This document shows, piece after piece, positions 1-24,887 of a stretch of DNA of 54,451 nucleotides (position 1 is the stretch's first letter; the number at the start of each line of letters is the position of its first letter). The stretch spans positions 1 through 54,451 of the forward strand of contig CAYRMU010000001.1 in NCBI GenBank assembly GCA_964425655.1. Direction: 5' to 3'. This stretch comes from an uncultured Candidatus Saccharibacteria bacterium (GTDB taxonomy: Bacteria; Patescibacteriota; Minisyncoccia; Phycocordibacterales; UBA918). The notes beneath the pieces are model-generated. The model had not been told where the DNA came from, did not search any database, and was given only the letters and a program-made list of their open reading frames with translations. A program made the translations under genes and the position numbers.

Positions 1-209
1 CCGGCCGTATCCATCACCTTCTCCTGTCCAGTATAAAACGGGTGTGATGAACTCGATACGTCAACGTAGGCAACCGGGTATTCAACACCATCGTCCCAGG
101 TAGCTGTACCAGTTGTCTCAACAGTTGATCCCATAAGGAAACGAGCGCCACATGAGTTATCGTGGAAAATTACCATGCGGTAGTTCTTTGGGTGAATGTT
201 TTGCTTCAT
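1..209 (-). CDS. rpmE: 50S ribosomal protein L31, first 69 codons; CDS runs off the left edge
   Basis: Manual minus-strand translation from ATG (complement of 207-209): MKQNIHPKNYRMVIFHDNSCGARFLMGSTVETTGTATWDDGVEYPVAYVDVSSSSHPFYTGQEKVMDTAG. This carries the L31 signatures MKxxIHP, SHPFYTG and DTAG. Only one Cys is present, so it looks like the zinc-free form. It is absent from the ORF track because no stop lies in the window. Confidence 0.9.
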   Translation of the reverse strand, partial: MKQNIHPKNYRMVIFHDNSCGARFLMGSTVETTGTATWDDGVEYPVAYVDVSSSSHPFYTGQEKVMDTA

Positions 210-310
210 AAGATTGTTTGGCGGTCACATTGATTCAGCGACCTTATGTATAAATTTACGTGGGGGTACTATACCAGAAATACTATATTCTGCAACAAGG
301 AAGGCTCTTG

Positions 311-3563: not shown

Positions 3564-4124
3564 TTACGAGGACGATAGTCGGCACAGCGTATACTCACCG
3601 ACCAAGTTTGGATTGGCTACCGACGAACGTCCACCACAGTCTTCATCGGTTCCTTCAAGTAAAAACCAGATACTGTAGTCCGCACTGGTGCACGGCAAAT
3701 CGTCGTTCATACCGATGCCGGCACAACCACTATACGCAGGACTTGAATACGTGTATGTACCACGTGTCTGCGCATACCGCCGTAGCGATGACATATACGC
3801 TAGAAATGCCGACTCAGCGGCAGCTGAGTTTACCGCACTGTATCCAGCTGAGTTCGTAATAGAACCCATGCACTGCTCTCCACTGGCTAACCCTTCGCCA
3901 ATACAGTAGCGCGCTCGTCTATTACCGTTCGTGCCCGGATAAGTACCGGTATCAGTGAAGTTCAGCTCGATGGCTTTCTGGTACTCATGCACTTGACCAA
4001 TGACCGCCTCATTTCTTGAGTTACGTCGACTATCATTGAGCGCAGCGATAACCACCGTTGATAGAATGCCAATAATAGCAATCACGATGAGAAGTTCGAG
4101 TAATGTAAAGCCGCGCTGCCGCAT
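3564..4124 (-). CDS. type IV pilin-like protein (prepilin-type N-terminal cleavage/methylation domain)
   Basis: MRQRG|FTLLELLIVIAIIGILSTVVIAAL is the classic G/FTLxE prepilin peptidase site with Glu5 and a hydrophobic helix. The globular C-terminal part has six Cys. Confidence 0.85.
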   Translation of the reverse strand: MRQRGFTLLELLIVIAIIGILSTVVIAALNDSRRNSRNEAVIGQVHEYQKAIELNFTDTGTYPGTNGNRRARYCIGEGLASGEQCMGSITNSAGYSAVNSAAAESAFLAYMSSLRRYAQTRGTYTYSSPAYSGCAGIGMNDDLPCTSADYSIWFLLEGTDEDCGGRSSVANPNLVGEYTLCRLSSS

Positions 4125-8353: not shown

Positions 8354-9991
8354 TTACTGTATGTGGAGCGTATTTCTGCGTCGTCGTCTTCCAAAAAAGA
8401 ATCGAAGCAAAAGCAAGAGAAGCCACCACAAGCCAAACATGGTGAGCAAACCAATGATGCCTCCAAGAATGATGTACGTGGTTGCAACGTAGAGCACCGT
8501 CTCCTCTGCCTCTGTCACTTGTGCTGCAGGAAGTACCTCAAGGGTTCCGGTAACGCTTCCGAGTGTCAGCGTGTTACGGTCAAAGACCGAGAGCTGCATT
8601 GGATACAGACCAACGTCTTCCATGCTGGCAGCCATCGCTTCAAAATGGGTTCCTGCGTCATTTCGGCGAAGTAAGTACGACGTGGTTCGATCGGCTTTCG
8701 TTGGGTGCTGCCACGTCACAATAACAGTTCGTACATCTGATGGGACAAGCGCCACCGGAACACGAATCACAAACGGAGCACCTGCCACGACTGCAATAGT
8801 CTCTGTTTGAGCTGGAACGAGTTCATCAAACTGCACTATCGTAATGTCGGCAAACGTGAGTCGGAAGAATTCTTGCTGCACCTCGTTTGGAGCGGCTGCA
8901 CTCGACGTGCTCGTTGTACCCCTTGGCAGCTGACTACCTGAGGTTGGTAGCACCGGCTCACTAGGCGGGAGACGGACCCCTGCTCGAAGCGCTAGTGCCA
9001 CGGCACCTGATGATGGCTGACCATCAATATTGTAGGCAAAGACTGTGTAGTACTGCCGATCATGTTCCCTGAGCGCACCTTCGTCATAAAACGTATCAGC
9101 TAAGCCTTCATAGACAATATAGCCATCATTCGGTGAGACAGGATACGTATAGTGGCTTCGCACCACCCGCACATACCCAAGTGCATCCCCTACCGGATTG
9201 CCCCACTGGAGAAGCACATTGAGCCCCGATACAGTCGCAGTAAAAAAGGAGACATTCGGCGCAGCTGCTAGGCTAAAGCGACTCAGTGTCGTGAAGCTGT
9301 CTTCACGCAAGAGGACCTCACGACCAAAGCGATCTTTTCCGAAGAGTGCATAAAAATAGGTCGTTGACGGCGCTAAGTCGGTCAAGATTGTACTATGATC
9401 TTTTTTATAAAGATCTGACTGCACAAAACCATCAGTCACTGCATCGGTTGTTCCGTAGCGCAGTATGTAGGTAACTGGCTGGAGTGTCCCAAAGGTAAAG
9501 CGCGCACTCCCGGTTCCCGGGTCAACATCAAGTGTACGGAGTCGTGGCGGCATGACTGTCGACTGGGGCGCAGCGTCAACATCTTCAGCAGGTGGCGGTG
9601 CCGCAAAGGTAGTAGTACTCACACTAACTGAAGACGTCGAGATATTTCCGAACAAATCAAATGCATCTACGTAGTAGGTGTAGGTTGTACTTGGGGTGAG
9701 TCCCGTGTCGCTATAGGTAAGGAGGGTCGTTGTCGCAATCTGCACGGCATCACGAAAGAGGCGGTAGCCCGCCAACACGTTGTTATCTGTCGAAGCGCCC
9801 CAGGTTACGTCAATTTGCGTTGTCGCAATTGGCGTCGCAGTTACCGGTGCAGGTATCGAAGGTGCAACTGCATCATCTCCGTAGAGCTGCTGCACGGTAA
9901 ACTCATCTGTTGACTGCGCTAGAGATGGCACGGGTATCAGTGCCGCCACTCCACAAGACAAACACAGCGCTACGACAATTGCACGAATCAT
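8354..9991 (-). CDS. cell-surface protein with about three fibronectin type III-like domains and a C-terminal TM anchor
   Basis: Signal peptide present. An FN3 signature is present (IDVTWGASTDNNVLAGYRLFRD...GLTPSTTYTYYVDAFD), with two further FN3-like segments. The C-terminus is YIILGGIIGLLTMFGLWWLLLLLL followed by RFFFGRRRRR. The ATG overlaps the upstream stop as ATGA (9988-9991). Confidence 0.7.
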   Translation of the reverse strand: MIRAIVVALCLSCGVAALIPVPSLAQSTDEFTVQQLYGDDAVAPSIPAPVTATPIATTQIDVTWGASTDNNVLAGYRLFRDAVQIATTTLLTYSDTGLTPSTTYTYYVDAFDLFGNISTSSVSVSTTTFAAPPPAEDVDAAPQSTVMPPRLRTLDVDPGTGSARFTFGTLQPVTYILRYGTTDAVTDGFVQSDLYKKDHSTILTDLAPSTTYFYALFGKDRFGREVLLREDSFTTLSRFSLAAAPNVSFFTATVSGLNVLLQWGNPVGDALGYVRVVRSHYTYPVSPNDGYIVYEGLADTFYDEGALREHDRQYYTVFAYNIDGQPSSGAVALALRAGVRLPPSEPVLPTSGSQLPRGTTSTSSAAAPNEVQQEFFRLTFADITIVQFDELVPAQTETIAVVAGAPFVIRVPVALVPSDVRTVIVTWQHPTKADRTTSYLLRRNDAGTHFEAMAASMEDVGLYPMQLSVFDRNTLTLGSVTGTLEVLPAAQVTEAEETVLYVATTYIILGGIIGLLTMFGLWWLLLLLLRFFFGRRRRRNTLHIQ

Positions 9992-10749
9992 AGTGGTAAG
10001 GCAGTTATTGTTGTGGTGGCAATATACACTCCAGGCGGCTGCACGACGGAACCCCCTACCCCTACCTGAAACTCAATCTTGGTGGGTGTACCACTTGGGT
10101 GATTGGCTGCGGGCGACGTGGCAATGATGACCGGGGTGGTCGAGAGCCCATCCCAACAGCGGTCGTTAGTGTCTGATCCAGACCCACACACGCCACCACT
10201 ATCAAGATACCGAGCAGCGACATGCGTGCCTTCAGGAGAAAACCCTAAATGCGCATCAGCCGCACCGGTCGTAAAGGTAAAATCGGCAGCTGCCCCGGCA
10301 GGTGCATAGTCGGCAATCGTATTCGCACCTGACTGCATCGCTGGACTTGATTCAGCTACAATCGTGAGTTCATACCCAGACAGGCTATCAGTAGTAACGG
10401 TGACGGTGGTTGAGCCCGTGGCGGTACCGCCAGAAACACCCGGAATCGTTGGTCCAAGCACCACTGCCGCAGAACCAGTCAGCGATATGTAGACTTGCTG
10501 CATTTGCTGATACCCAGCGCGGATTTCAAAATTTGTACTCTCAGAATTGCCGGTGGCAATTTCACCAACAGTAGACTCAGTCTGGTAGTTAGTCGACGAA
10601 CTGAAGCCACCCCCTACGTTGATAGAGTCACTTTGAATCATATAGTTGGTGCTCTCCATCACCTGTGCCAAAGAGAGCTGCAGGGAGAAAAAGACAAGGG
10701 GAAAGAAAAGTACCGAAGCACCAAATGTGACAAACACTTGACGCACCAT
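9988..10749 (-). CDS. secreted beta-rich protein, divergent WxL-like domain (paralogue A)
   Basis: Signal peptide present. Three S-x-STN(Y/F) motifs follow, then TVTVTTDSLSGYELTIV, a C-x10-CW pair, and the C-terminus PPGVYIATTTITALPL. It is colinear with 11959..12645. Confidence 0.5.
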   Translation of the reverse strand: MVRQVFVTFGASVLFFPLVFFSLQLSLAQVMESTNYMIQSDSINVGGGFSSSTNYQTESTVGEIATGNSESTNFEIRAGYQQMQQVYISLTGSAAVVLGPTIPGVSGGTATGSTTVTVTTDSLSGYELTIVAESSPAMQSGANTIADYAPAGAAADFTFTTGAADAHLGFSPEGTHVAARYLDSGGVCGSGSDTNDRCWDGLSTTPVIIATSPAANHPSGTPTKIEFQVGVGGSVVQPPGVYIATTTITALPL

Positions 10750-10751
10750 AC

Positions 10752-11858
10752 TTAGTCTTTTCGTTTAAACTCGAAGCGAGTAAAGATAAATCGAATCAAG
10801 AGGAAGAAGACGAAGAGCGATGCAAAGACTCCGAGCATGATTTTCCAAGGGAAAACCCAAAATACGATTGTCATTTCATCGACAATGTCGTCGTAACTGC
10901 GGTTCAACTGAATAGTCGCAACGTACCGACCGATCAAGAGCTCGCGATCCCAGGAAACCTCCTTGGTGCGCAGTGACTTCGGCAAAATGAACCAAGGCTG
11001 CAAGTCAACCACACCCACCTCTTCACCAATGATGTTGCTGATAGTGATACGTCCGTACGGTGCAAGGTGCACTGAACCAGTACTTTCAAAGGTTACCCCA
11101 AAATCGATCGGGCCGCTGAGGAAAAACTTCTGGTCGCCGAGCGTAGCAAAATCTTTAAGCGAACCTTCTCGCTCAATATCACCTGGAGAAGTCACAAAAA
11201 AGAGTGTTCCGATGCGACTAATGATAGTTGAACCTGGCTTAGCACCACCCTGCTCATCGAGTAGGTTTGGATCACTGGTTATCTGCGTCAGTATACTTCC
11301 ATAGAAGCCGCCTGGCTCTGCATCGGCAGGAATAGAGACAGTAACCGGAATGCGGACACGCTGCCCATGCTCCAGGTAAAACTTATCGTAGGGCACACTG
11401 ATGAAGTCCTTGATACTGTACGGACCTACACGCTCACCAAGGAGACTGACTGCGGTAGAACCATCAACTGACCCCTCTGCGTCTTCCATAGTGAACTCAA
11501 AGAGTTCTCGCTGCCCCATGCGGTTAGATACAATGAGCTCAACAGTCTTTGACTGGCCTGGTGCGAGCTCCAGGTCAAACTTGCCTGGCCCGACCACGAA
11601 ATCGTTGAACACCTCTTCCGGGTTAGGTAGGCCTTCTCGCGGATAGTTATCGTAGAAGGTATTTGCTGCCTGAGGCACACTATCAGTCGATGTACTGGTT
11701 GCCTCAACGACATCCTCAAGGATGAAGTCCGACACCTCGGTAACACCGAGACTTGCTTCGCCCTGCGCAAAAACACCCACAGGCATTGCCGTGAGTGCTA
11801 GTGCTATTACTCCGAGGAGAGAAATAATTTTAGTTGTGATGTGTGTAGCTGTGTTCAT
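10752..11858 (-). CDS. DUF916/DUF3324-like (CscA-type) surface protein with C-terminal TM anchor
   Basis: ATG at 11858 is preceded by AAGGAA, and a signal peptide follows. Matching segments are FDLELAPGQSKTVELIVSNR, PGGFYGSIL, and ILPKSLRTKEVSWDRELLIGRYVATIQL. A terminal TM and basic tail (FEFKRKD) close the protein. This matches the architecture of DUF916+DUF3324 proteins in WxL loci. Confidence 0.5.
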   Translation of the reverse strand: MNTATHITTKIISLLGVIALALTAMPVGVFAQGEASLGVTEVSDFILEDVVEATSTSTDSVPQAANTFYDNYPREGLPNPEEVFNDFVVGPGKFDLELAPGQSKTVELIVSNRMGQRELFEFTMEDAEGSVDGSTAVSLLGERVGPYSIKDFISVPYDKFYLEHGQRVRIPVTVSIPADAEPGGFYGSILTQITSDPNLLDEQGGAKPGSTIISRIGTLFFVTSPGDIEREGSLKDFATLGDQKFFLSGPIDFGVTFESTGSVHLAPYGRITISNIIGEEVGVVDLQPWFILPKSLRTKEVSWDRELLIGRYVATIQLNRSYDDIVDEMTIVFWVFPWKIMLGVFASLFVFFLLIRFIFTRFEFKRKD

Positions 11859-11958
11859 AGAGATTCCTTTGCCTGTAAAATAGTCAATCAATTACAATTT
11901 CGTTGCCAGACTATTTTAGCATACGGCCCTGAAATCTCTAATCAACAACACTGCACTA

Positions 11959-12645
11959 CTAGTTGACCAATGCTGTCAAGGTAGCAGTTGCGTTGTAGAA
12001 ACCGGCAGGCAAATCTGGGTCTGGGTTTGCACCAACACCAACTCGGAAGGCAATGATAGTTGTCTCACCTTCTGCCGGAGTAGGGGTTGCGCGGTTTACG
12101 AGTGTGTACGGAGTGGTTGCGTTTGACTCCATAGTCCAGCAGCGACTAGCGTTACTGTTACCGCCACCAATGTTACAGGCTGATCCGTTGTTGCGGAGCT
12201 CAGTCACGATACTGGTTGATGAGGCAGCGAGCGCGAAGCTTGATGAACCGGTAATCACACTAAAGTTGTAGTCAGCGCCACCACCGTCGTTGTAGTTAGG
12301 AATATAATCAGGACCTGATTCATACTGCATCGCAATTGTGTCAGCAAAGTGAATCGTCATGTTGTAGCCGTCAACGTCGTTGGTTGAGACAGCTACGGTT
12401 GTGGTACCACTTGAGATACCGCCCGTAATACCAGCAATATCTGGGGCCATAACCACGTCTGCTGCTGTGGTTTCAAAGCGAATTTCAGCAGTAATTTCTT
12501 GCTCAACGGTAAACACATCCTCAGCGGCGATACTTACAGTTGGTTCGAGTGTTACAAATGAAAGTAAAGTCACTGCCAGTGCAGCAGTAGCAGCTACCAA
12601 CGCAGCCACTACTGGATTAGTCTTTGTAAAAAGATTCGTACTCAT
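11959..12645 (-). CDS. secreted beta-rich protein, divergent WxL-like domain (paralogue B)
   Basis: Signal peptide present, then TTVAVSTNDVDGYNMTIH, a C-x11-CW pair, and the C-terminus PAGFYNATATLTALVN. It aligns along its length with 9988..10749. Confidence 0.5.
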   Translation of the reverse strand: MSTNLFTKTNPVVAALVAATAALAVTLLSFVTLEPTVSIAAEDVFTVEQEITAEIRFETTAADVVMAPDIAGITGGISSGTTTVAVSTNDVDGYNMTIHFADTIAMQYESGPDYIPNYNDGGGADYNFSVITGSSSFALAASSTSIVTELRNNGSACNIGGGNSNASRCWTMESNATTPYTLVNRATPTPAEGETTIIAFRVGVGANPDPDLPAGFYNATATLTALVN

Positions 12646-12746
12646 ACAATATAATTAAATTAATATATTACACAACTAAAATGTAATACCTATAGTATAT
12701 AGCCCCGACGGTATAAAGTTTGACGTTTTGGGTAATCCAATGTGGA

Positions 12747-12781
12747 TAACAAAAGCACCCTCAGGAAGGGTGCTTTTGTTA
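12747..12781 (-). terminator. rho-independent terminator of the giant fibre gene
   Basis: taacaaaagcaccct-cagga-agggtgcttttgtta: 15-bp arms including A/T tracts. It starts 4 nt after the stop at 12785. Confidence 0.75.
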
Positions 12782-12784
12782 CTT

Positions 12785-15700
12785 TTAGCTACTTGCTTCG
12801 GTTTCAGTCTCTGTATCCACTGCTGGTTCGTCTGTGGGCCCTGTTTCAGTACTCGCTTCGCTTGGTACCACCACCTCGTCATTGGGGGTATCTTCTGTCT
12901 GATCCTCTACTACTGCATCGGTACCTATTTCATCTTCAGCCTCTTGCGAAATACCGTTTAGAGGTGCGACTGGCTCTACTGACTCACCAGGCGATTCATC
13001 GGTAGGCTGATCAGGTTCCGGTTCATTTTGCTCTACCGGTGTAGGTGCTGTACCGAGGGCGGCTTCGAGTTCCTGCACACGAGCCTCAAGCTCAGTTATG
13101 CGCTCACCCTGCCCTCGCACAATATCCCACAAGTCTTTTACTGCCTCGACGACGAGCGCAATCATATTGCTCTTATTGAGCGACCAGTAGTCACCTCCTT
13201 TACTCACGACTTCCGGTAAGACCAGGTCGACCTCTTGCGCAATAAAGCCTATCTCGACTTGCGCCCCGAACCGATCCTTGTCTATCCACTCGTACCGTAC
13301 ACCACGAAGCTCAGTGAGGAGCTCGAGTGCATTTTCAACCTCGGTCACATTTTCCTTGAGTCGTGCATCTGAAGGATCGCGAATGATGACTCCATTGGCA
13401 TCCGTTGTCAGGTTAGTAGCACCACCTAAGAGATTCGCAGCTTTTATACTGCCATCAACCGTAAGCTTACTCGAGGTAGAGGTGGTGCCAATACCCAATG
13501 AACCCTCAATGTACGAGCTACTACTTCCGTACACGAGCAGTGCGCCGTCAGTAACAATTCCTTCAGCACCAACACTCAGTCCAACACCAGCCCTAAGCCG
13601 CCCGGCAACCGTGGCGTCATCACTGATAGAGAGCTGACTGCCTGAGATTGAGTACACAATGGCTGACTGCAGAGTTGCGCCTGAGATGTCAAAGACGTGG
13701 AAGTCATTACCACCGACTTCAGTCGTCATATAGGCATACCGCCCGATAATGCGGATGCCGTATGCACTACCTGCGCCGAGGTTGCTGCCGCCAATACGTA
13801 CCGCTGCAAGCGGGTTAGCGACATCAACTACCTCGATATCATCACCGGTTGTTAAGGATGCAATGTAGGCGTACCGTCCAGCCAGCGCAATACCTCGCCC
13901 GGCGGCATCAAGCGCTACTGAAGAAGCTACACTGATGTCTGCCGGATTACGTACGTTAATTACATGGAAATCGTTGCCGGTGCCGTTGGTGGTTACGTAG
14001 GCGTACGCACCACTCACCACCACCTTATGAGCCCCATCAGTTAGCGCAACAGAATCGGTAGTAGTTGGAGCAGTTGGATTACTAATATTGATTACATGGA
14101 AATCGTTGCCGGTGCCGTTGGTGGTTACGTAGGCGTAGTCACCCCGCACAGCGACACCGTTGGCGTTGGTCGGAAGATTTACGCCGCCGACAATCACTGG
14201 GTTCAATGGGTCTGATATATCCACGATGGACATATCATCGCCCGGTGAATCACTCACTACGTAAGCGTACCGTCCTGCTATTGCAATACCATTGACTGCA
14301 CTCGGCATTGCTGCAACAGCCACCTGCACTGGGCTGAGTGGATTACTGATATCTATGACATGAAAATTATTACCAATTGTGTCAGTCCCCACAAACGCAT
14401 ACCGTCCGCGAACCACTACTGCCTCAGAACTGCCAGTAAGATTAATAGCTGCTACCTGGGCTGGCGCAGCTGGGTTTGTTACGTCCACCACGTGGAAGTC
14501 ATTACCAGTCGACTCACTCACCAGGTAGGCGTAGTTACCAACCACATCGAGCGCGTACACGGTGTCACTGAGCGATATACCGCCAACCGATGAAGGTCCA
14601 TAATCGGTTGTACTGTTACCGCCCTGCTGCGTAATTGAGCCACCGAGAATTGTCAGTCTATCACTCGGTGATTCGGTGCCGAGACCGAGCAAGGCACTAG
14701 ATTGGTTGTAATACAGACCGGCTGTTCCGCCTGGACCGTTAAAATTGACTGAGCCATTAACCTCGAGCATCTCTGTTGGAGCCGTGACGCCGATACCTAG
14801 GTTAGTACCAGTAAACACAAAATTGCTGCTCTGGGTTAGGTAGGTACTTGACCCGTGCACATACTGAATCGCTCCAGCCGTGAAGCTGTTGGGAGTATCA
14901 TCAAGTCCGAGGTAGGTCTCAGACCCGCCACCAATGGCGCTGACTGGCGCAAACCGTAAATTACCAGCCCCGTCAGTCACGAGGACATGGTCGCTCGACC
15001 CGTCTTCTGTTGGCAAGGTCCAGACAGTGTCAGAAGCTAATGTACTTGATGCTCGAAACCCTACGTAATTTGATCCGTTGCTATAAAGGCGCAGTGTCCC
15101 CTGCCCCACCAAACTTGCGTCACCATCAATTGAGAGTCGCGTCGCAACTGAGCTAGTACCGAGTCGCAAGCTGTTATTGAGGTAGGTTAGACTCGCTGTT
15201 TGCGTTATCGCTGAACTCGTCGCATTCGCAAACTGCAGGGCTCCTGCAATAAAGGAGTCCGGTGTGTCATCAAGTCCAAGGTACGTACCGTCACCATACC
15301 CGAGTGCGGCTGAAGCCACATTCACCCAAGCAACACCGTCATACTGGAGTAAGTCGCCCGCTGTTGTGGTGGCCAGAGTGACATCAGTCAAGTCTCCGAG
15401 TTGATCTGCCCCACCAAGGCACGTACCATTTACTGCCACACAGCCGCTCGTTACATTAATACCGCCAACAAATGCACTATTGCCCACCACTGAAAGTGTT
15501 GCCATAGGGCTTGAGGTACCGATGCCGAGACGAGTACCGGTAAATACAAAGTCAGCCGCTTGCGTCAGCGCGGTGTTTGAAGCGTTTACGTACTGAATCG
15601 CCCCAGCGACAAAACTATTTGGCGAATCAGAAAGTCCCAGGTAGGTACCGTCACCGAGGCCCAGTGCTGCCGCAGACACGTTTCGCCACACTGAGCCATC

Positions 15701-17143
15701 GTACTGTAAATAATCTCCAAGCGTAGTTGAGCTAAGGCTCACGTCATTGAGCTCATCAAGTGTATTTGCTCCCGTAAGACACGTACCATTTACTGCCACA
15801 CAGCCGCTCGTTACATTAATACCGCCAACAAACAGTGAGCTCGTGCTGTTAATCACAGTGAAGCCGCCGGTAAAGGTACTGTCCCCAACTACCGTCAAGG
15901 TATCGGTTGGGGTCGAGGTACCAATGCCGAGACGGTCGTTGCGGTACACGAAGCCAGCTGACTGCGTCAACGCTGAACTCGTCGCATTCGCAAACTGCAG
16001 CGCACCAGCAATCAGCGTATTTGGAGTGTCGGTTAGGCCGACGTACGAAGCAGGTGCTGCGCCCGCAATACACACGCCATCAACCGCGTAGCAGCCATCG
16101 GTAATGTTCACACCACCACCAAACGTAGACGTGGCAGTACCGACAGTCGTGAGCGTACCAAAAACAGTCAAGCTCGCTGGTGTACTCGTTGCACCGACTG
16201 CCACATTAGTAAAGAATGCTGCTGCTGGTGTACTTGCGCCAATGATAGTGTCATCAATGGTGCCACTGAGGATAGTAAGAATGTTACTAACGTCCCCATC
16301 AAGAATACAACCGGAACATCCGCCTCGACCGCGCACAGAATCAAGTGTTGAAACGTTTTCAATCGTCAGTCCGTCAATTTCAATATCTTCACCTTCCTCC
16401 AAATCAAGTTCTCCAGTCTCACCATTAAGACTCGTCACCACCTCAAGATCTTCGAGGTCAACTGAGATAACTGGATTATTTTGAGTGCCGGTAATACTGA
16501 TGTTATCGCCAGCGGTAACGGTATTGACTATATTGCTCGCAAAAATACTTCCACCTTCCAGGTCAATATCTGCACCATTGGTGGTGATGCCACCTCCAAC
16601 GACCAGCGATCCCGCCACGGTAGCGCTACCGAGCGTGCTGTAGGAGCCAAACGTTGCTGCGCCAACTGTAGTAAGTGTATTCGTCTCAAGTGCATCAATG
16701 GTCAGCAATCCTAAAATAGTCGTCGTCGATAGCGTCGCCAAACCACTGATACGGAGATTGGTATCAATAAATAACGGCGCATTGATAACGAGTGTACCCT
16801 GCTCACTCGTGGCGGTTGGCACGTATGAACTACCCCTTTGCGCTACAGTATCGGTAGGCGAAACCAATTCATTGTTGGAGCTACCAAGCTGCGCCACTTG
16901 CAGTGCTTCGCCAGAAAAAATCTTCCCTGCCGTCGTGTACGCAATAGACCAAACTTTTTCAAACTGTGCACTCATCCGTGACCACCACGGTGACACATCG
17001 TCACCGGCCGCCTCTGTAGCAGCAAGTGGTGCAAACATAAACACGAGCATCATTAAAATAGCAATACTGAGCTTCACTAAATAGCCTCTAGTATACCCAT
17101 GCCTGAGTAGAGAGGTAGTAGTTTTTGCACGAATAATCTGCAT
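12785..17143 (-). CDS. giant (1452 aa) surface fibre protein: N-terminal signal/anchor, tandem fibre modules, LVIVD beta-propeller, S74 intramolecular-chaperone domain, acidic tail
   Basis: A single uninterrupted ORF with an ATG start and an N-terminal hydrophobic segment (LSIAILMMLVFMFAPLAATEA). The domain evidence is given in the sub-features below. Confidence 0.85.
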   Translation of the reverse strand: MQIIRAKTTTSLLRHGYTRGYLVKLSIAILMMLVFMFAPLAATEAAGDDVSPWWSRMSAQFEKVWSIAYTTAGKIFSGEALQVAQLGSSNNELVSPTDTVAQRGSSYVPTATSEQGTLVINAPLFIDTNLRISGLATLSTTTILGLLTIDALETNTLTTVGAATFGSYSTLGSATVAGSLVVGGGITTNGADIDLEGGSIFASNIVNTVTAGDNISITGTQNNPVISVDLEDLEVVTSLNGETGELDLEEGEDIEIDGLTIENVSTLDSVRGRGGCSGCILDGDVSNILTILSGTIDDTIIGASTPAAAFFTNVAVGATSTPASLTVFGTLTTVGTATSTFGGGVNITDGCYAVDGVCIAGAAPASYVGLTDTPNTLIAGALQFANATSSALTQSAGFVYRNDRLGIGTSTPTDTLTVVGDSTFTGGFTVINSTSSLFVGGINVTSGCVAVNGTCLTGANTLDELNDVSLSSTTLGDYLQYDGSVWRNVSAAALGLGDGTYLGLSDSPNSFVAGAIQYVNASNTALTQAADFVFTGTRLGIGTSSPMATLSVVGNSAFVGGINVTSGCVAVNGTCLGGADQLGDLTDVTLATTTAGDLLQYDGVAWVNVASAALGYGDGTYLGLDDTPDSFIAGALQFANATSSAITQTASLTYLNNSLRLGTSSVATRLSIDGDASLVGQGTLRLYSNGSNYVGFRASSTLASDTVWTLPTEDGSSDHVLVTDGAGNLRFAPVSAIGGGSETYLGLDDTPNSFTAGAIQYVHGSSTYLTQSSNFVFTGTNLGIGVTAPTEMLEVNGSVNFNGPGGTAGLYYNQSSALLGLGTESPSDRLTILGGSITQQGGNSTTDYGPSSVGGISLSDTVYALDVVGNYAYLVSESTGNDFHVVDVTNPAAPAQVAAINLTGSSEAVVVRGRYAFVGTDTIGNNFHVIDISNPLSPVQVAVAAMPSAVNGIAIAGRYAYVVSDSPGDDMSIVDISDPLNPVIVGGVNLPTNANGVAVRGDYAYVTTNGTGNDFHVINISNPTAPTTTDSVALTDGAHKVVVSGAYAYVTTNGTGNDFHVINVRNPADISVASSVALDAAGRGIALAGRYAYIASLTTGDDIEVVDVANPLAAVRIGGSNLGAGSAYGIRIIGRYAYMTTEVGGNDFHVFDISGATLQSAIVYSISGSQLSISDDATVAGRLRAGVGLSVGAEGIVTDGALLVYGSSSSYIEGSLGIGTTSTSSKLTVDGSIKAANLLGGATNLTTDANGVIIRDPSDARLKENVTEVENALELLTELRGVRYEWIDKDRFGAQVEIGFIAQEVDLVLPEVVSKGGDYWSLNKSNMIALVVEAVKDLWDIVRGQGERITELEARVQELEAALGTAPTPVEQNEPEPDQPTDESPGESVEPVAPLNGISQEAEDEIGTDAVVEDQTEDTPNDEVVVPSEASTETGPTDEPAVDTETETEASS
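12788..13057 (-). other. 90-aa acidic Pro/Glu/Asp/Thr-rich low-complexity C-terminal tail of the giant protein
   Basis: PTPVEQNEPEPDQPTDESPGESVEP...TEDTPNDEVVVPSEASTETGPTDEPAVDTETETEASS. Confidence 0.8.
13058..13378 (-). other. Peptidase_S74-type intramolecular chaperone/auto-processing domain followed by a coiled coil
   Basis: DPSDARLKENVTEVENALELLTELRGVRYEWID...IGFIAQEV...NMIALVVEAVKDL...ELEARVQELEAAL. Ser1258 (codon 13370-13372) and Lys1263 have the S-x4-K spacing of the endosialidase/tail-fibre self-cleavage dyad. Confidence 0.8.
13664..14566 (-). repeat. seven tandem ~44-aa LVIVD-type repeats (predicted 7-bladed beta-propeller)
   Basis: Seven copies of G(R/D/N)YAY(V/L/I)xxxxxGNDFHV(I/V)D(I/V)SNPxxP. 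An exact 47-bp DNA repeat sits at 13959-14005 and 14091-14137, spaced 132 bp. Confidence 0.8.
14654..16126 (-). repeat. four tandem fibre modules (period about 120 aa) within the giant CDS
   Basis: Y(L/V)GL(T/S/D)D(T/S)P(N/D)(S/T)(F/L)xAGA(L/I)Q(F/Y)...LGIGT recurs at aa 367, 501, 621 and 744. GGINVTSGCVAVNGTC recurs at aa 440 and 560. An exact 53-bp DNA repeat sits at 15420-15472 and 15780-15832, spaced exactly 360 bp. Confidence 0.85.
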
Positions 17144-17508: not shown

Positions 17509-19848
<2,340 letters not shown>

Positions 19849-19865
<17 letters not shown>

Positions 19866-21312
19866 ACGTTTGCATGATGTTATGGTGTGCTTTTACGGTT
19901 GTCAGGAAGGTCTGCCAGTCAATGGCGTCGTTGTACACCATTTGCCGCAAGGGTTCGAGCTCAGGGTGCTCGGTCACCATTTTTACCAACTTCGGTCGAA
20001 GCTTGGTCACAAAATCAACGGTGTAGCCAGAAAAGAATTCAGAAAACACTAGCGCCATGAGAAGCACCTGTGCCGCTGGGGTACGCCCCTCAAAGACGGG
20101 CTGCTGCAGCAACGCCTCAATAATCCCTCCACGACGAAGGACCTCTTTCGTCTGCTCACTTAAGTCAGCACTAAACTTTGCGTACTCGAGCTGTGTTCGG
20201 TATGAACCTAAGAGCATCTGCGTGTGTCTAGTCACCTGCTTCTGGAGCGTACGCTGGGATTGCCGCCCGACACGAGTTACCGACTGCTCAATACTGATGG
20301 ACGGGTAAATACCCTCAGCGCGGAGTCCAGGGACAAATGACAAGTGTCCGTCGGTACACGCCATGACGTTGGTTGGAATCAAGTCTGAGAAATTACGGAC
20401 GTCGGTTTGAATAACCGGCAGTGCGGTGATTGAACCGCCGCCAAGCTCTTCACTAAAGTGACCCGAGCGCTCCATCAAGTGGGCATGCTGGTAGAAAATA
20501 TCACCAGGATATGACTCTGTACTTGGTAAACGGCCCTCAAGGAGAGCGATCTCGCGCAGGTACTTTGCGTGCGCATCAAGGTCATCGAGGACGACGAGGA
20601 CATGCTCACCAAGACGGGCAAAGTGCTCCGCGAGCAAAAAAGCAATCGATGGTGCGAGCGAAATCATGGAGGCTGGCTCATCGGAGAGTGCCGAAATAAC
20701 TATGTTTTTACTCCCCGGGCGGGCCTTCCCAATAATGGTGTCAGTAATTTTGCGCAGGCCATTAATAGGCTTTCCAATAACGGTATAAATACAAACCGTC
20801 CCAAGACTGGCTTGTGCCTGAACTACTTCAGTTAAAAAGGTACTCTTACCACTCCGCATTGGTCCAAAAACCAGCTGACGCTGCCCTTTCGCAATTGGAA
20901 TCAGCGTATCAACCATGGTCACGCCCGTAATGAGCTGCTCATGAATTGGCTGCCGCACCTCAATCCCCGGAGCATCACCCTCAAGTGCAAAGCGCACATT
21001 GGCAGGTGGAAAGGAACCTTTATTATCGATGGGTTGCCCCAAGACATCAATAATTCGTCCAAAGAGGTGATTACCAACCGAATAGTGGTTGTCGTCGGCC
21101 AGGTACTGGTAGCGATCACCGGGCTGAGCTGCGTCAGAGAGCGCCAAGGCAAACACATGGGCGTCCCCAAGCGCACGCACAATAGCCCGCCGACCCTTTT
21201 GATCGATAAGCAAATCATTTACGCGCGCCGAAGGGAGCCCCTCAATCGTGAGCAGGTACCGCTTTGCTTTAACAACGATACCAACCTCCTGTATCCGAGT
21301 ACTAGGTTGCAT
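19849..21312 (-). CDS. atpA: F1 ATP synthase alpha subunit (divergent P-loop GPMRSGKST)
   Basis: LIPIAKGQRQLVFGPMRSGKSTF compares with the canonical GDRQTGKT. YPGDIFYQHAHLMER and ALPVIQT are also present. The track start at 21330 is GTG, so ATG at 21312 is used. Confidence 0.9.
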
Positions 21313-21817
21313 AGCTATCGAGTACCTCACGGATTACCTCTGGCATTTTTCGCAACCTTGGCGTGAAGGAATAATCGTACAACTTCCCGCCGGAAATGAC
21401 CGCACAGCCACCAAGCGTCATGGCATCTATCTCAAAATCGAGCATATGGTTTGGTGATAACTCTTTGCGGCACCACTCCCCCATGGTCTCCTCTCCATCT
21501 GCATCGAGGACTGCGGGTACGTACACCGTCACTCGCGGGAGCCCCTCAAGCCAAGTATGCAGCTCCGCTATGTTGGTATGGAATGTCTGCTCTGAAAATG
21601 CCGTAAGCCACGCAGTACCCCACAGCGCAACAGCGGTATGGTCTTCTGGCGTCGCTTCAACGGCCAACGCAGCGCTGTATCGCTCCTCAGGCGTTGCATC
21701 ACCTTCAGCTTTTGTATAAAAAAGTGATTCCAAAACTCGCTGCAAAAGACCAATCCGGCGCTTAGCCGCTTCAACCGAAAAAGTATTACTGAGTAAAGCT
21801 GCCTTAAGTGAATCCAT
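21302..21817 (-). CDS. atpH: F1 ATP synthase delta (OSCP) subunit, divergent
   Basis: Its position between b and alpha, its length of 171 aa, and the C-terminal EIDAMTLGGCAVISGGKLYDYSF, which resembles the OSCP motif DPxLIGGxxxxxGDxxxDxS. Confidence 0.65.
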   Translation of the reverse strand: MDSLKAALLSNTFSVEAAKRRIGLLQRVLESLFYTKAEGDATPEERYSAALAVEATPEDHTAVALWGTAWLTAFSEQTFHTNIAELHTWLEGLPRVTVYVPAVLDADGEETMGEWCRKELSPNHMLDFEIDAMTLGGCAVISGGKLYDYSFTPRLRKMPEVIREVLDSYAT

Positions 21818-21823
21818 AGCGTA

Positions 21824-22609
21824 TTACAAAATGTTTTCGCGCTTAGCGACCGCGAGTGCATCGCGCGCCAATTCAGCATGGTCAGTAATGGTGAGTTGCT
21901 TCTGAAGCACTTTCTTTGTGACTGACTCGACGATGTTGTTGATATGCGTATCAAGGAGGTGCAACCGCGCTTTTTTGTACGCCAAGATTTCTCCATCGAG
22001 TGCAACCAAGGCTGCTTTTGTGTGCTCATCGAGCTTCGTCTTCACCATCATGTCTTGTGTAGCTAGTGCGTTTGTGAGTGTACTCGAGGCATTCTCAATC
22101 ACGCGACTCATTGTACTGAGTGAGGCCTGGGCAGCTGCATCAACCTGCTTCTCTGTTGCGGTAAACGAATCGAGTACCCCCATAAAGCGGGTATTGAGTT
22201 TTTCTCGTCCAGCCTCAAGGGCATCAAGTGACTGATCACCAATACTTTCAAGCTTTTCTAAATGGACCGCAATAGCGCCGTTCATTTTCTGTGTCAGCAT
22301 TTCAGCGTGCTGCTTGAGATTTTCCTGGTAGGCACTCTGCAGCTCTGCGGCGTGCTGGGTATAGGCAGCTAGAATCTGTGTATGTTCAGTTTCAGCACTG
22401 GCGATAATGGCATCTGCCTTGCGCTTTGCCTCGGCTATAATTCCCTCAGCCTCTTCTTCCGCCTGGTGCTGCACAAATTCGTAGGCTGGCGCCGCAATCC
22501 GGTTTACCATTAAGCTGCTTCGGACCTGGAGAAAAAGCATGACCAACATCGATACAATAAGGCCACCTAAAATTCCAGCAAGAAGTTCAATTGAGAGAGG
22601 GATGTTCAT
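21824..22609 (-). CDS. atpF: F0 ATP synthase b subunit-like, elongated (261 aa)
   Basis: A single N-terminal TM (LLAGILGGLIVSMLVMLFL) followed by a long charged helix (QAEEEAEGIIAEAKRKADAIIASAE...). It is the first gene of the cluster. Confidence 0.65.
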   Translation of the reverse strand: MNIPLSIELLAGILGGLIVSMLVMLFLQVRSSLMVNRIAAPAYEFVQHQAEEEAEGIIAEAKRKADAIIASAETEHTQILAAYTQHAAELQSAYQENLKQHAEMLTQKMNGAIAVHLEKLESIGDQSLDALEAGREKLNTRFMGVLDSFTATEKQVDAAAQASLSTMSRVIENASSTLTNALATQDMMVKTKLDEHTKAALVALDGEILAYKKARLHLLDTHINNIVESVTKKVLQKQLTITDHAELARDALAVAKRENIL

Positions 22610-22747: not shown

Positions 22748-23530
22748 TTATATAGGGAGCACGAGGACGCCGATGGCGACAAAGATAACAACAATTACCA
22801 ATAGCAGCACCATGATTAAGCTGCCAGCTGCAATCCAGACAACCGACTTTCGCGCGCGCGGATTGCGTCCAATTGAGAGTACGCTTGAGCTCAGTATTGA
22901 GCGGAAACTGTAGAGCAAGAAACCGAGTGCACCGAGTGTGATAATCACGGCCACTAAAATGCGCGGCAATGAGGTCGCTTCTTTTGCCTCACGTGCTTCA
23001 GCAACTGCTGCCTGACGAGACTGTTGTGCTGCCATCGCTGCTTCTACCCCCACCTCTGCTTGAATAATCCCCTGTCCAGCTGCTAAATCCTCTAGCGCAA
23101 CCGCAAATACCGCCATTGTCTCAAGATCAGCCCGCATGGCTACTCCAGCCACTGGGCTCGTTGTGAGTAAATCACCACGAACAATGGCACCATTCTGACC
23201 CGCATCCACCAGTACGCCACTGACTCCCTGCGTTACAATCGGTGTTGTATTGCTGGCTGTCACAAAAACAATTGCTGGACGCTCACCTACTACCCCATAG
23301 ACGGCTGTATCAAACGCTGCTTCAGTTAACGTATACGTAGCACGCTCGTCATTGTAGCGAACCACCATACCTGGAGATCCAGGAGTGCCTGCCAGCGGAA
23401 TTGTCGTAGCAATCGGTAGCTCTGAATTTGCCTGCACCCCAGAACCAGCCAGGAGAGCGTACACCACCCCCACCACCACGAGCCAACGCCAGTGGACCGT
23501 CAGCTGATTACGCGAAGAAAAATAAAACAT
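22748..23530 (-). CDS. hypothetical membrane protein: signal peptide, ~170-aa extracytoplasmic domain, Ala/Gln-rich linker, C-terminal two-TM hairpin
   Basis: ATG at 23530; the track start at 23563 is TTG. The signal is WRWLVVVGVVYALLAGSGVQA. The C-terminus is LVAVIITLGALGFLLYSF...SIGRNPRARKS...VWIAAGSLIMVLLLVIVVIFVAIGVLV. Confidence 0.55.
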   Translation of the reverse strand: MFYFSSRNQLTVHWRWLVVVGVVYALLAGSGVQANSELPIATTIPLAGTPGSPGMVVRYNDERATYTLTEAAFDTAVYGVVGERPAIVFVTASNTTPIVTQGVSGVLVDAGQNGAIVRGDLLTTSPVAGVAMRADLETMAVFAVALEDLAAGQGIIQAEVGVEAAMAAQQSRQAAVAEAREAKEATSLPRILVAVIITLGALGFLLYSFRSILSSSVLSIGRNPRARKSVVWIAAGSLIMVLLLVIVVIFVAIGVLVLPI

Positions 23531-23537
23531 AGAAGTG

Positions 23538-24023
23538 CTAGTCAGATACTTCAAACCACTCAATCACCGCTGCTGGGGTAACTACGCGCTCACGTAACAC
23601 AGACGCAGTTTGTGATAACCCGTCACCAATATCTGCCCACGTCACCTCAGCCTGAAAAGCTGCAAACGAAACAATCGCAAGAATACATCCGCACATTGTC
23701 ACAATCCCTACCTGACCAACAACAAACCAGGCCTGTGCGGGCTCTCGAAGTTGCCCTGTTCGTTCTTCGTACTCACGCCAGGCTGTCTCAGCTCGTTCAC
23801 GAAGTGCTACGTTACGAAGCTGCATCGTGGCATCATGCTCTGAAGCCGCTATAAACGCCTGGAGTGAAGCAATATCTACAAAACATTGACCCTGCACAAA
23901 GGATGCATCAATCCATTTACCTCGAGCCAGCCGCTCGACATAGGACACGTGGTACCCCACGACCAAAGCCGCTCGATCACTCGCTACATACAACCGCCCG
24001 TTTATATCGAGTGACTCAAGCAT
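23538..24023 (-). CDS. hypothetical protein: possible N-terminal excisionase/MerR-like HTH plus a single TM
   Basis: LYVASDRAALVVGYHVSYVERLARGKWIDASFVQGQCFVDIASLQAFI resembles the HTH_17 pattern. The TM is WFVVGQVGIVTMCGCILAIVSFAAF. Confidence 0.45.
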   Translation of the reverse strand: MLESLDINGRLYVASDRAALVVGYHVSYVERLARGKWIDASFVQGQCFVDIASLQAFIAASEHDATMQLRNVALRERAETAWREYEERTGQLREPAQAWFVVGQVGIVTMCGCILAIVSFAAFQAEVTWADIGDGLSQTASVLRERVVTPAAVIEWFEVSD

Positions 24024-24071: not shown

Positions 24072-24887
24072 TTAAAAACTGTGGACAAGCAAGGCAGTGA
24101 GCTGCATTTTTATCAAGTTGACCAGCTCTACCAGTGGCGTGAGACTGTACGTCTCGCCACTCGCATCAGCCGTTACTGCAACTGAATTAGTTACACTCAC
24201 CAGGCCGACCGCAATAATGGAGGCAGTGAGGCCCGATACGACAATCACCCACGGAGAAACTAGCGAACGACTATCGACCATTCGTGCATCTACTTTAATA
24301 GTTGTCCCACGCGGGTTTCGGTCTGTTATGCGCTCTCGCTGCATACCAATAATGCCGTCAGGATTACTCAAAGGAACTAAGGTTTCCTTTTCGTGCTTCG
24401 TGTAGGCATTGAGTGTCTTTCGTCCTTTCTTGTGAACGACCGGTATGTGGTACACACCGTGCGCATCTTTACCTTGAGCAACTGCATCGTCGGTTAAAGC
24501 AGCAACTTCTGCGTCCGCTTCTTTTGTGGCAGCTGGCTTTGCCGCTTCGGCCACGGAAGCTTCGGGAACCACTGCGTTTTCGGCCACCGCTTCAACTGGC
24601 ACATCTGGCACTTCACCAATTGAGAGTTTGCCTCGAAACTGAATCACCGGGAGCGGAGTTGCTTCATAGCGTGCAGTGCCTCCATCACTTGACGCAATGC
24701 GGACCTTCTCAGCCTCGGCTAGACCCACCGCAACTCGGCCAATTTTTTTTGGCTTCGGGAGCAAATCTCCAGCATCAGTCTCATAGGAAGCTTTCGTGAT
24801 TGGAATACGACGGTAAAAATGCTCAGCATATTTTGCTGAAGCAGTTCCCCCTCCTACACGAACAAAACTACGTGTCTCCTGACCCAT
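24072..24887 (-). CDS. hypothetical protein with a single TM near the C-terminus
   Basis: ATG start and an Ala/Glu-rich central region. The TM is WVIVVSGLTASIIAVGLVSV. I recognise no family. Confidence 0.5.
   Translation of the reverse strand: MGQETRSFVRVGGGTASAKYAEHFYRRIPITKASYETDAGDLLPKPKKIGRVAVGLAEAEKVRIASSDGGTARYEATPLPVIQFRGKLSIGEVPDVPVEAVAENAVVPEASVAEAAKPAATKEADAEVAALTDDAVAQGKDAHGVYHIPVVHKKGRKTLNAYTKHEKETLVPLSNPDGIIGMQRERITDRNPRGTTIKVDARMVDSRSLVSPWVIVVSGLTASIIAVGLVSVTNSVAVTADASGETYSLTPLVELVNLIKMQLTALLVHSF

Follow-up and report, generated by a model that had tools for sequence, protein, structure and literature searches.

The candidate phyla radiation (CPR, or Patescibacteria) accounts for a very large part of the diversity of bacteria, and the majority of its members appear to live attached to other cells. 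Here we analyse a module of four genes on a 54,451-nucleotide (nt) contig of an uncultured member of this radiation (CAYRMU010000001.1, assembly GCA_964425655.1; the whole stretch is called the window below), for which the closest described systems are the Pam pili of CPR bacteria and the WxL loci of Bacillota. Troman et al. solved two filaments from the CPR parasite Ca. Mycosynbacter amalyticus (Saccharimonadia) and defined the pam operon, in which PamA, PamB and PamE are two-domain pilins with a donated linker strand between the N-terminal domain and a truncated immunoglobulin (Ig)-like C-terminal domain (CTD), PamT is a single-domain protein, PamC and PamD are PapD/FimC-like chaperones, each with a C-terminal transmembrane (TM) helix, and PamR combines FnIII domains in tandem with an additional strand at the N-terminus and a TM helix at the C-terminus (10.64898/2026.03.03.709456). 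According to the same preprint, the conserved pam neighbourhood includes a central tail-fibre-like gene and ATP synthase, conservation in PamA/B peaks at the donated linker and the CTD site (supplement), PamA is O-glycosylated, and Pam pilins occur mainly in Saccharimonadia and Microgenomatia; neither Parcubacteria/Paceibacteria nor WxL/DUF916 is mentioned there (10.64898/2026.03.03.709456).

WxL loci, as described in Lactobacillales, Enterococcus and Listeria, encode small WxL and large WxL proteins together with WxLIP, a protein of DUF916-DUF3324-TM architecture (PMC10599100, PMC9772566). [quoted passage not shown]

The module in the window comprises four genes running in the same direction on the minus strand, in the order pilB, a gene for a DUF916-type chaperone-like protein (the chaperone), pilA and a gene for an FN3 anchor (Table 1). 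It probably encodes, with a likelihood that we put at about 65%, a minimal Parcubacteria-type CPR Pam pilus, that is, a sortase-free and usher-free filament on the cytoplasmic membrane of a monoderm, built by donor-strand complementation and exchange. This reading is based on the match of pilA to PamT, a parts list and neighbourhood shared with Pam, the pilin features of pilA and pilB, the functional coupling of the genes and the precedent for the chaperone. Pili of this kind have been known since 2026; what is new is a minimal variant in a lineage unnamed by the Pam preprint, and the link to WxLIP.

Pilin-like proteins, putative chaperone and anchor

The NCBIfam model NF058579, 'CPR-type pilus protein PamT', matched pilA with 48.3 bits (E=8e-13, model positions 8-141 of 241) as well as all 41 pilA orthologues (best E=1.8e-14), which at the level of sequence supports homology of pilA to PamT, not PamT orthology. 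The model also aligns on internal segments of two-domain pilA relatives, and since the match thus falls on internal regions of longer proteins, it is not a signal-peptide artefact. In the AlphaFold2 (AF2) model of pilA, residues 88-253 form a beta-sandwich with pLDDT ~90, and residues 28-83 are unstructured (pLDDT <50). A Foldseek search with this model returned a TasA fibre (8aur, rank 1), the PapG pilin domain and the TasA-like 9ikk (rank 3), with FimA, CsuA/B, PapE, CfaB and CanA among the further top matches, the top of the list being almost entirely donor-strand-exchange subunits. Sequence searches of the PDB with pilA and its profile gave nothing at E<=10.

The extension of 56-60 aa ahead of the sandwich domain is among the most conserved parts of pilA, with S33, D41, S42, N44, G47, G48, S50, S52, E58, G62, E63, G67, S71, G79, Q81 and Q82 invariant or near-invariant. 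Long proteins account for 48 of the best 150 representative pilA matches; many of them place an N-terminal domain before the equivalent of pilA aa ~30-253, giving lengths of ~330-380 or 490-670 aa and up to 2187 aa, and some have a domain inserted after the extension. Two-domain proteins made up of an N-terminal domain, an SxNY segment and a C-terminal domain (~330-380 and 490-520 aa) are similar in size to PamB and PamA. At two loci in other CPR lineages, a two-domain protein takes the place of pilA, with the same chaperone and FN3 anchor on either side; at the related locus L092 a pilB-like gene comes first. The pilA extension therefore corresponds to the inter-domain linker of these relatives, and pilA can be viewed as a 'linker + C-terminal domain' pilin whose extension is a candidate donated segment.

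Paralogy of pilA and pilB, proposed in an earlier note made from the letters of this DNA, was confirmed by BLASTP (34% identity over 169 aa, E=2e-20) and hhalign (E=1.7e-46). The two proteins had been described as aligning along their length, which does not hold, as only the C-terminal ~170 aa are common to both and pilB is without the extension of pilA. The accompanying Cys-x10/11-Cys-Trp pattern is correct for pilB (x11) and incorrect for pilA (x9), x10 being the family norm. Both families have one conserved disulfide-type Cys pair, and the pilins consist of 21-25% Ser+Thr. Mean column identity is 67% for pilA and 44% in the family alignment of pilB. The candidate donor strand of pilB conforms to the family consensus F-T-[VI]-x-Q-x-I-T-x-E-I-S-F, in which F45 is found in 60/61 sequences, V/I47 in 61/61, Q49 in 60/61, I/V51 in 61/61 and F57 in 58/61. 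Caf1 was weakly matched by 4 of the 40 pilB orthologues, among which there were no WxL, PamT or TasA matches.

The first-ranked fold match suggests a fibre of the TasA or archaeal-bundling-pilus type, in which donor-strand exchange would be spontaneous, no chaperone would be needed and the DUF916 protein would serve another role. Besides ranks 1 and 3 in the fold search, this possibility is favoured by the report of TasA-family proteins in Patescibacteria (PMC9245690). However, the fold similarity to TasA is weak (E=0.01, TM score ~0.3), 0/81 orthologues of pilA and pilB matched Peptidase_M73/TasA (PF12389) at E<=1, the module and the window open reading frames (ORFs) scanned yielded no recognisable SipW-type peptidase or TapA-like gene, and a chaperone-fold protein is invariably adjacent to pilA and sometimes fused to it. 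Such a fibre is highly improbable, and membership of the TasA/camelysin family is ruled out by the absence of Peptidase_M73 from the 81 orthologues and by a fold match that reaches only E=0.01.

The earlier note had interpreted the two paralogues as WxL domains whose Trp residues are replaced, based on a central and a C-terminal motif. As a reference, we used seven annotated Lactobacillales loci on plasmids, which supplied nine small WxL proteins and seven WxLIPs, all confirmed with Pfam; the Pfam WxL positive controls scored 72-197 bits. By comparison, Pfam WxL (PF13731) was matched by 0/41 pilA and 0/40 pilB orthologues at E<=1 (0/81 in all), and the best E values of a custom WxL hidden Markov model (HMM) were 0.15 against a database of 81 sequences and 0.28 against one of 61. 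Alignment by hhalign against the nine WxL proteins yielded 2-4% probability for pilA (11-12 columns) and 0.5% for pilB (25 columns), and global alignment of the paralogues with WxL proteins scored no better than a reversed-WxL control. The only segments that hhalign pairs, SGYELTI with LGWKLSV and YNATATLTAL with YKTTLTWIL, correspond to the two motifs of the earlier reader. The central motif reads G-Y-x-[LM] in 80/81 pilA and 59/61 pilB sequences, the TxTW tail occurs in 0/142 pilA and pilB sequences, and the median Trp count of 1 in pilA/pilB is accounted for by the Trp of C-x-n-C-W. The motif resemblance is thus real as a pattern, without statistical weight, and is typical of the edge strands of many strand-exchange subunits. 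A different fold had been named beforehand as a check, and the top, individually weak fold matches of the pilA model are TasA, PapG, FimA and CsuA/B; the WxL chain 9i25_A is in the PDB, yet lies outside the top 50 Foldseek matches of this model. Taken together, Pfam, hhalign, reciprocal HMM searches, reversed-control alignment and motif counts rule out the paralogues as Trp-less WxL domains. The locus also falls outside the definition of a WxL cluster, with a WxLIP homologue flanked by two paralogous secreted proteins, neither of which has a WxL domain.

The middle gene encodes a genuine member of the DUF916/WxLIP family, in which, as in WxLIP, a signal peptide is followed by two Ig-like domains, a C-terminal TM helix and, at the end, a basic tail. 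PF06030 (now WxLIP_PGBD) matched it with 28.9-29.0 bits, the gathering cut-off being 27.3, and matched 43/44 of its orthologues (best E=1.7e-9). A phmmer search led to EfmWxLIP1, the WxLIP of E. faecium, in the PDB (E=5.7e-8), with the alignment taking in the [YK]-F-D-L strand; hhalign of the chaperone family against the seven authentic WxLIPs gave 96.8% probability (E=2.6e-10), and reciprocal HMM searches between chaperone family and WxLIP matched 58/73 and 7/7 sequences. The AF2 model (pLDDT 83) consists of a helix at residues 3-27, strands at 74-224 and 232-335 that form two beta-sandwiches, and a helix at 338-362. Its best Foldseek matches are the WxLIP structures 9i1y / 9i25_C (E=4e-13) over ~270 columns that cover both domains, followed by RbmA and the chaperones CfaA (3e-9), CsuC (3e-8), FimC (4e-7) and CupB2 (1e-6). 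We infer a chaperone role from the homology to WxLIP and the fold similarity to CfaA, CsuC and FimC. The model and the hydrophobic segments agree with the signal peptide, Ig-like segments, C-terminal TM helix and basic tail noted earlier for this protein. Its assignment as DUF916 + DUF3324 stands for the first domain; DUF3324/WxLIP_HBD (PF11797) was matched by 0/44 orthologues at E<=0.01, and the second domain, an Ig-like domain in the model, appears WxLIP-like in position and fold class only, its sequence being unrecognisable as DUF3324. Of the proposed kinship with WxL loci, a weaker version holds, in that both kinds of locus encode a homologous chaperone-like protein.

The fourth protein is, as previously proposed, a TM-anchored protein with three FN3 domains, according to matches to Pfam fn3 (E=7e-9) and the FN3-like Pur_ac_phosph_N, internal repeats (hhalign d1-d3 95.6%, d1-d2 81%) and a hydrophobic segment at residues 498-534. 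The mature N-terminus of the anchor follows the consensus [ST]-D-x-F-[TN]-[IV]-R-x-x-[VI]-G-x-D, with a Pro-rich linker before the first FN3 domain; F31 is kept in 63/73 sequences, I/V33 in 69/73 and D40 in 70/73. In its consensus, this strand mimics the N-terminal strand of pilB. In authentic small WxL proteins of the reference loci L081-L087 (e.g. L084:4055-4795), the signal peptide is followed by a short, conserved strand (…SNGxITFxP…), a Pro-rich linker and the WxL domain, an N-terminal layout that resembles a donor strand and would fit strand exchange in WxL clusters too.

Gene order, coupling and distribution

Independent gene calls on identical public contigs reproduced the lengths of 228, 368, 253 and 545 aa. 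The chaperone ORF is open to a TTG at 11891 (379 aa), and database entries and independent gene calls begin at the ATG at 11858, which is most likely the gene start. In all four proteins the N-terminus is a hydrophobic segment leading into an x-[LFI]-A site of the cleavage type, in agreement with the initial description of four consecutive minus-strand genes for exported proteins, and the 368-aa chaperone and 545-aa FN3 anchor end in a hydrophobic helix followed by a basic tail. The junction between chaperone gene and pilA reads TAAgtATG, a 2-nt gap, and that between pilA and the anchor gene reads ctATGAtt, a 4-nt overlap, exactly as previously noted. This tight packing is kept across 72 loci: chaperone-pilA spacing is <=20 nt in 69/72, and pilA-anchor spacing is <=20 nt in 70/72, with the -4 overlap in 30/72. 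The reported lack of an LPXTG protein and a sortase was likewise borne out, as no C-terminal LPXTG signal was found in the module proteins, where the sole LPTSG is internal (aa 348 of the FN3 anchor), and no sortase domain was found in the window ORFs scanned. For the proteins and ORFs covered, this rules out a sortase-assembled pilus. Nor did the module proteins or the other window ORFs scanned match usher, PapD_N/PapD_C or fimbrial Pfam families.

To place the module among its relatives, 80 related loci were fetched, and neighbours were counted only in loci with enough flanking DNA. The chaperone gene lies directly upstream of pilA in 70/71 loci and the FN3 gene directly downstream in 69/69, a separate pilB precedes the chaperone gene in 52/61, and GAPDH follows downstream in 54/61. 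Conservation of gene order had been proposed beforehand as a check, and the order is indeed kept in about 70 related CPR genomes. The pilA family has >1000 homologues of ~253 aa in a 90%-clustered collection, with conserved length, and forms 1633 clusters at 50% identity (E<1e-3); relatives are present in 186 species-representative genomes, and pilA is ~60% identical across lineages. The informative labels of related records name Parcubacteria, Paceibacteria, Kaiserbacteria, Nomurabacteria, Zambryskibacteria and Minisyncoccia, and all public copies that were looked up are unnamed or 'hypothetical'. Two contigs with the same module carry titles outside the CPR, namely L021 (Acidimicrobiales), which also encodes a GAPDH 69% identical to that of the window, and L063 (Nanoarchaeia archaeon); these are most likely mis-binned CPR contigs rather than instances of the module outside the CPR.

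Nine divergent loci (L046, L047, L049, L054, L065, L067, L076, L078 and L080) are without pilB. In these, a protein resembling a helix-turn-helix (HTH) protein precedes the chaperone and the anchor still keeps its N-terminal strand, which there can pair only with pilA. As the pilB-less loci retain the other three genes and the anchor strand, chaperone, pilA and anchor constitute an invariant, translationally coupled core, and pilB is an accessory missing from a divergent subgroup. The conserved protein ahead of the module in this subgroup and at L092:2476-4308 has an HTH-like N-terminus (…SRAAKISGYVNDYIGQLCRDGKLECR…) and a C-terminal part with …GIIKPVFK…YLYVLVP, and may be a membrane-associated regulator; the six-frame translation of the window contains no copy of its C-terminal motifs.

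Coupling of the core extends to single-ORF fusions of chaperone and pilA, which are seen in several metagenomic lineages and, among the top 150 representative clusters, number at least 15. In the one example inspected (P0245/L096:410-2143), a continuous ORF runs through the chaperone TM helix, a basic loop, the pilA signal-peptide core and a signal-peptidase-type site, although this is a single short contig in which an assembly error is possible. Such an ORF would amount to a natural fusion by which production is held at 1:1.

The same coupling bears on a WxL-type, non-filamentous complex as an alternative product of the module, in which the DUF916 protein would be a permanent tether in the membrane, binding one pilA/pilB domain through strand complementation, and the FN3 protein would hold another, to display the pilA extension or the fibre on the cell surface with no polymer formed. 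Apart from membership of the WxL domain family, this comes close to what the earlier note proposed. Tight 1:1-type coupling and the fusions suggest that the chaperone is used stoichiometrically, not catalytically; its nearest relative by sequence and fold is WxLIP, which forms a stable complex with WxL (9i25) and is described as a linker; the three-gene variant has only one pilin type; and the two motifs of the earlier note pair with WxL motifs in local hhalign. Nevertheless, the paralogues fail every WxL test and pilA matches PamT instead, the conserved N-terminal segment, disordered in the monomer, resembles the donated strands of Pam pilins, the anchor strand mimics the pilin strand in the fashion of a terminator, and Pam pili, which have the same parts list, are proven filaments. 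A complex of this type is therefore unlikely as an account of the module.

Genomic neighbourhood

Table 1. Coordinates of the module genes, their domains and adjacent features in the window.
Feature	Residues (aa)	Nucleotides	Strand	Description and basis
pilB		11959-12645	(-)	228-aa secreted pilin-like protein, accessory pilin; ORF
pilB signal peptide	about 1-40			
pilB donor-like N-terminal strand	45-57	12475-12513	(-)	FTVEQEITAEIRF; candidate donor strand
pilB beta-sandwich domain	58-228			C-x11-C-W loop; C-terminal strand YNATATLTAL
DUF916/WxLIP-type chaperone-like gene		10752-11858	(-)	368 aa, membrane-anchored; ORF from ATG at 11858
DUF916/WxLIP_PGBD domain of chaperone		11292-11579	(-)	PF06030
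Second Ig-like domain of chaperone		10854-11165	(-)	AF2 model
TM helix of chaperone		10773-10847	(-)	Followed by basic tail RFEFKRKD
pilA		9988-10749	(-)	253-aa secreted core pilin-like protein; ORF
pilA signal peptide	1-27/28			…SLA|QVM
pilA N-terminal extension	28-87	10489-10668	(-)	Three S-x-N-[YF]-x-[ILT] repeats ending AGYQQMQ
pilA beta-sandwich domain	88-253			C-x9-C-W loop; C-terminal strand G-V-Y-I-A-T-T-T-I-T-A-L-P-L
FN3 anchor		8354-9991	(-)	545 aa; ORF
Free N-terminal strand of anchor	~27-40	9872-9913	(-)	After signal peptide; then Pro-rich linker
Three FN3-type domains of anchor		8972-9874	(-)	Pfam and internal repeats
Fourth beta-rich domain of anchor		8507-8899	(-)	
TM helix of anchor	498-534	8390-8500	(-)	Followed by Arg-rich tail
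Fibre/adhesin gene		12785-17143	(-)	1452 aa; N-terminal hydrophobic anchor, LVIVD beta-propeller repeats, C-terminal Peptidase_S74
Hairpin and TTTTGTT		12747-12781	(-)	Core stem GCACCCT/AGGGTGC directly after fibre-gene stop codon; terminator-like
ATP synthase subunits		17509-21817		Upstream, beyond the fibre gene

The gene upstream of pilB encodes a large fibre or adhesin in which Pfam recognises LVIVD in six stretches (E=6e-29) and Peptidase_S74 (E=6e-17), the latter being an intramolecular chaperone domain of the phage-tail-fibre type. In most related loci (L002-L079), the position immediately upstream of pilB is taken by a giant same-strand ORF of ~780 to >2690 aa, often truncated at the end of the 10-kb flank, and the order of fibre gene and ATP synthase is repeated in L002, L003 and L005; the sequence of this ORF is poorly conserved across related loci. 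Given the terminator-like hairpin behind the fibre gene, transcription of the four genes probably starts from a separate promoter within the AT-rich spacer 12646-12746, on the minus strand of which no consensus -35/-10 was found. The fibre gene is an associated gene, probably with a transcript separate from that of the module.

This position invites another explanation, in which the four proteins would be a basal adaptor that anchors or assembles the 1452-aa LVIVD/S74 fibre, with the pilA extension binding the fibre and no filament of their own. It would account for the recurrence of a giant same-strand ORF ahead of pilB, and a tail-fibre-like gene is central in the conserved pam neighbourhood as well (10.64898/2026.03.03.709456). 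On the other hand, a hydrophobic anchor at the N-terminus and a terminator-like hairpin belong to the fibre gene itself, whose sequence shows little conservation against ~60% identity for pilA in the same genomes, and other genes stand at the fibre position in the pilB-less subgroup and L092. We consider a purely basal role of the four proteins quite improbable.

Downstream of the module lie genes for GAPDH, RpiB and other housekeeping proteins, and neither rRNA nor tRNA genes were found in the window. Four ORFs on the minus strand between ATP synthase and gatB (21824-22609, 22748-23563, 23538-24023 and 24072-24887; 161-271 aa) have no Pfam match at E<=0.001 and may include divergent versions of the ATP synthase membrane subunits a and b. 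A 186-aa protein encoded ~4 kb away from the module (3564-4124, minus strand) matches PF07963, the N-terminal methylation motif of type IV pilins (E=3e-9), which adds a type IV pilin-like protein, and thus another class of filament subunit, to the same stretch. GC content falls from ~0.50 to ~0.43 near 34 kb, and the low-GC part (~32000-54451) is a coherent surface-glycan biosynthesis cluster with a Wzy_C ligase with TPR, GT2, two GT1/GT4, a Polysacc_synt flippase, methyltransferases including a sugar C-methyltransferase, GDP-mannose 4,6-dehydratase and AsnB; given this coherence, an assembly chimera was set aside as the cause of the drop. A link between the glycan cluster and the Ser+Thr-rich pilins is speculative. 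At L092 (11374-16664; JGI 3300029286), a diversity-generating retroelement composed of a 951-aa target protein of the FGE-sulfatase fold, bAvd and an RVT_1 reverse transcriptase lies directly downstream of the pam-like module, the pilin and anchor genes of which have Avd-like four-helix-bundle genes (23S_rRNA_IVP family) scattered between them.

Proposed assembly and comparison with known systems

If the module encodes a minimal Pam pilus, all four proteins would be exported by Sec, as suggested by their signal peptides and TM segments. The DUF916/WxLIP-type protein, kept in the membrane by its C-terminal helix, would lend a beta-strand to the incomplete Ig-like pilA and pilB, and this strand would then be swapped for the N-terminal segment of the next subunit, either the triple-repeat extension of pilA or the 13-residue strand of pilB. 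Growth would end when the free N-terminal strand of the FN3 anchor ([DE]-x-F-T-[IV]…) plugs the groove of the last subunit; by analogy with PamR and PapH, the three FN3 domains would act as a stalk and the C-terminal helix would tether the fibre. There is evidence both ways on which pilin polymerises. pilA may form the shaft, as it is the sole pilin in the three-gene variant and its extension is where its conservation peaks, like the donated linker of PamA/PamB; alternatively, pilB may form the shaft with pilA as a PamT-like tip or initiator, as pilB is the first gene, is more variable and has the short strand that the anchor mimics, and pilA matches PamT. Together with the adjacent giant fibre, such a pilus would be likely to serve in reaching and holding a host or partner cell.

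Several observations weigh against a minimal Pam pilus. Polymerisation and strand exchange are inferred, and no filament has been seen for the family. The equivalog cut-off of the PamT model is 240 bits, which none of the 41 pilA orthologues approach, and the match to pilA is confined to the N-terminal half of the model. The fold matches of pilA are individually weak (all E>=0.01, TM score ~0.3-0.6), and its extension is much longer than a single donor strand. Homology to PamC, PamD and PamR of M. amalyticus is architectural only, and neither the chaperone nor the FN3 anchor matches a Pam-named model in NCBIfam. Moreover, the WxLIP of Firmicutes is regarded as a stable tether or adaptor, not as an assembly chaperone.

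The module is among the most conserved unannotated surface loci of Parcubacteria, in which partner attachment is largely unexplained. Highly expressed 'peptidoglycan-binding-domain' proteins of cultivated Paceibacteria (PMC10936435) were not tied to it, the one that was traced having 692 aa and another context. If the module is a minimal Pam-type pilus, this class would extend from Saccharimonadia and Microgenomatia to Parcubacteria, and a four-protein system would be at hand that is small enough for reconstitution and makes predictions on strand-groove pairing. As its chaperone is homologous to DUF916/WxLIP, Pam-type systems and Firmicute WxL clusters may be related, which provides a concrete, testable hypothesis on the surface clusters of WxL/Csc type in enterococci, listeriae and lactobacilli, themselves poorly understood. 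We tentatively raise the possibility, itself doubtful, that CPR Pam-type pili and Bacillota WxL clusters are two branches of an ancient usher-less 'chaperone-subunit' system of monoderms with DUF916/WxLIP as the counterpart of PapD. The membrane-anchored DUF916/WxLIP protein would then bind secreted, incomplete beta-sandwich subunits, whether small or large with N-terminal adhesive domains, through strand complementation and pass them along in a strand exchange; WxL proteins, which have long been viewed as platforms for peptidoglycan binding, would be assembled like pilins, and the four-gene operon, with a chaperone, one subunit or two, and an anchor, would be the simplest extant example, found widely in the largest CPR class.

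Among the systems with which the module can be compared, TasA fibres, archaeal bundling pili and cannulae are likewise donor-strand-exchange fibres of monoderms or archaea, and TasA was the top-ranked, weak fold match; TasA-type systems are without a dedicated chaperone, whereas the chaperone-fold protein of the module is obligatory. Chaperone-usher pili of Gram-negative bacteria, above all the archaic and alternate types (Csu, CFA/I and Caf1), resemble it in the fold of the chaperone (CfaA, CsuC, FimC and CupB2) and of the pilin domain, in alternating-hydrophobic N-terminal donor-like strands and in a terminator-like subunit that mimics the donor strand. Unlike these pili, the module has neither usher nor outer membrane, its chaperone is membrane-anchored, and its anchor is an FN3 TM protein, not a terminator of pilin fold.

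WxL loci are closer in their DUF916 protein, which is homologous and has two Ig-like domains, a C-terminal TM helix, a basic tail and a [YKR]-F-[DE]-L strand, and in the placement of its gene beside genes for secreted beta-rich proteins of ~200-250 aa, of which larger versions add N-terminal domains. The partners in the module, however, are not WxL domains, DUF3324 was undetected in the 44 chaperone orthologues, and the hosts are CPR, not Bacillota; the module has an FN3 membrane anchor, whereas some WxL loci have LPXTG proteins and a sortase.

From the Pam system, whose filaments have been solved, the module differs in having four genes instead of about seven or more and one chaperone in place of PamC and PamD. 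Both of its pilins are single-domain proteins without the N-terminal domain of the PamA/PamB type, its anchor has three FN3 domains and a fourth domain as opposed to two, its lineage, judged from related records, is Parcubacteria/Paceibacteria, and its chaperone is recognisably DUF916/WxLIP. Like Pam, it is restricted to the CPR, has no usher and no sortase, lies adjacent to a tail-fibre-like gene and an ATP synthase operon, and encodes secreted pilin-like proteins with an Ig-like C-terminal domain, paired cysteines and a conserved N-terminal or linker segment, which is here the candidate donor. The likeness extends to a two-domain, PapD/FimC-like chaperone with a C-terminal membrane helix, matched in the module by model and Foldseek, and, in architecture, to an FnIII protein that, as PamR does, combines an extra N-terminal strand with a C-terminal TM helix.

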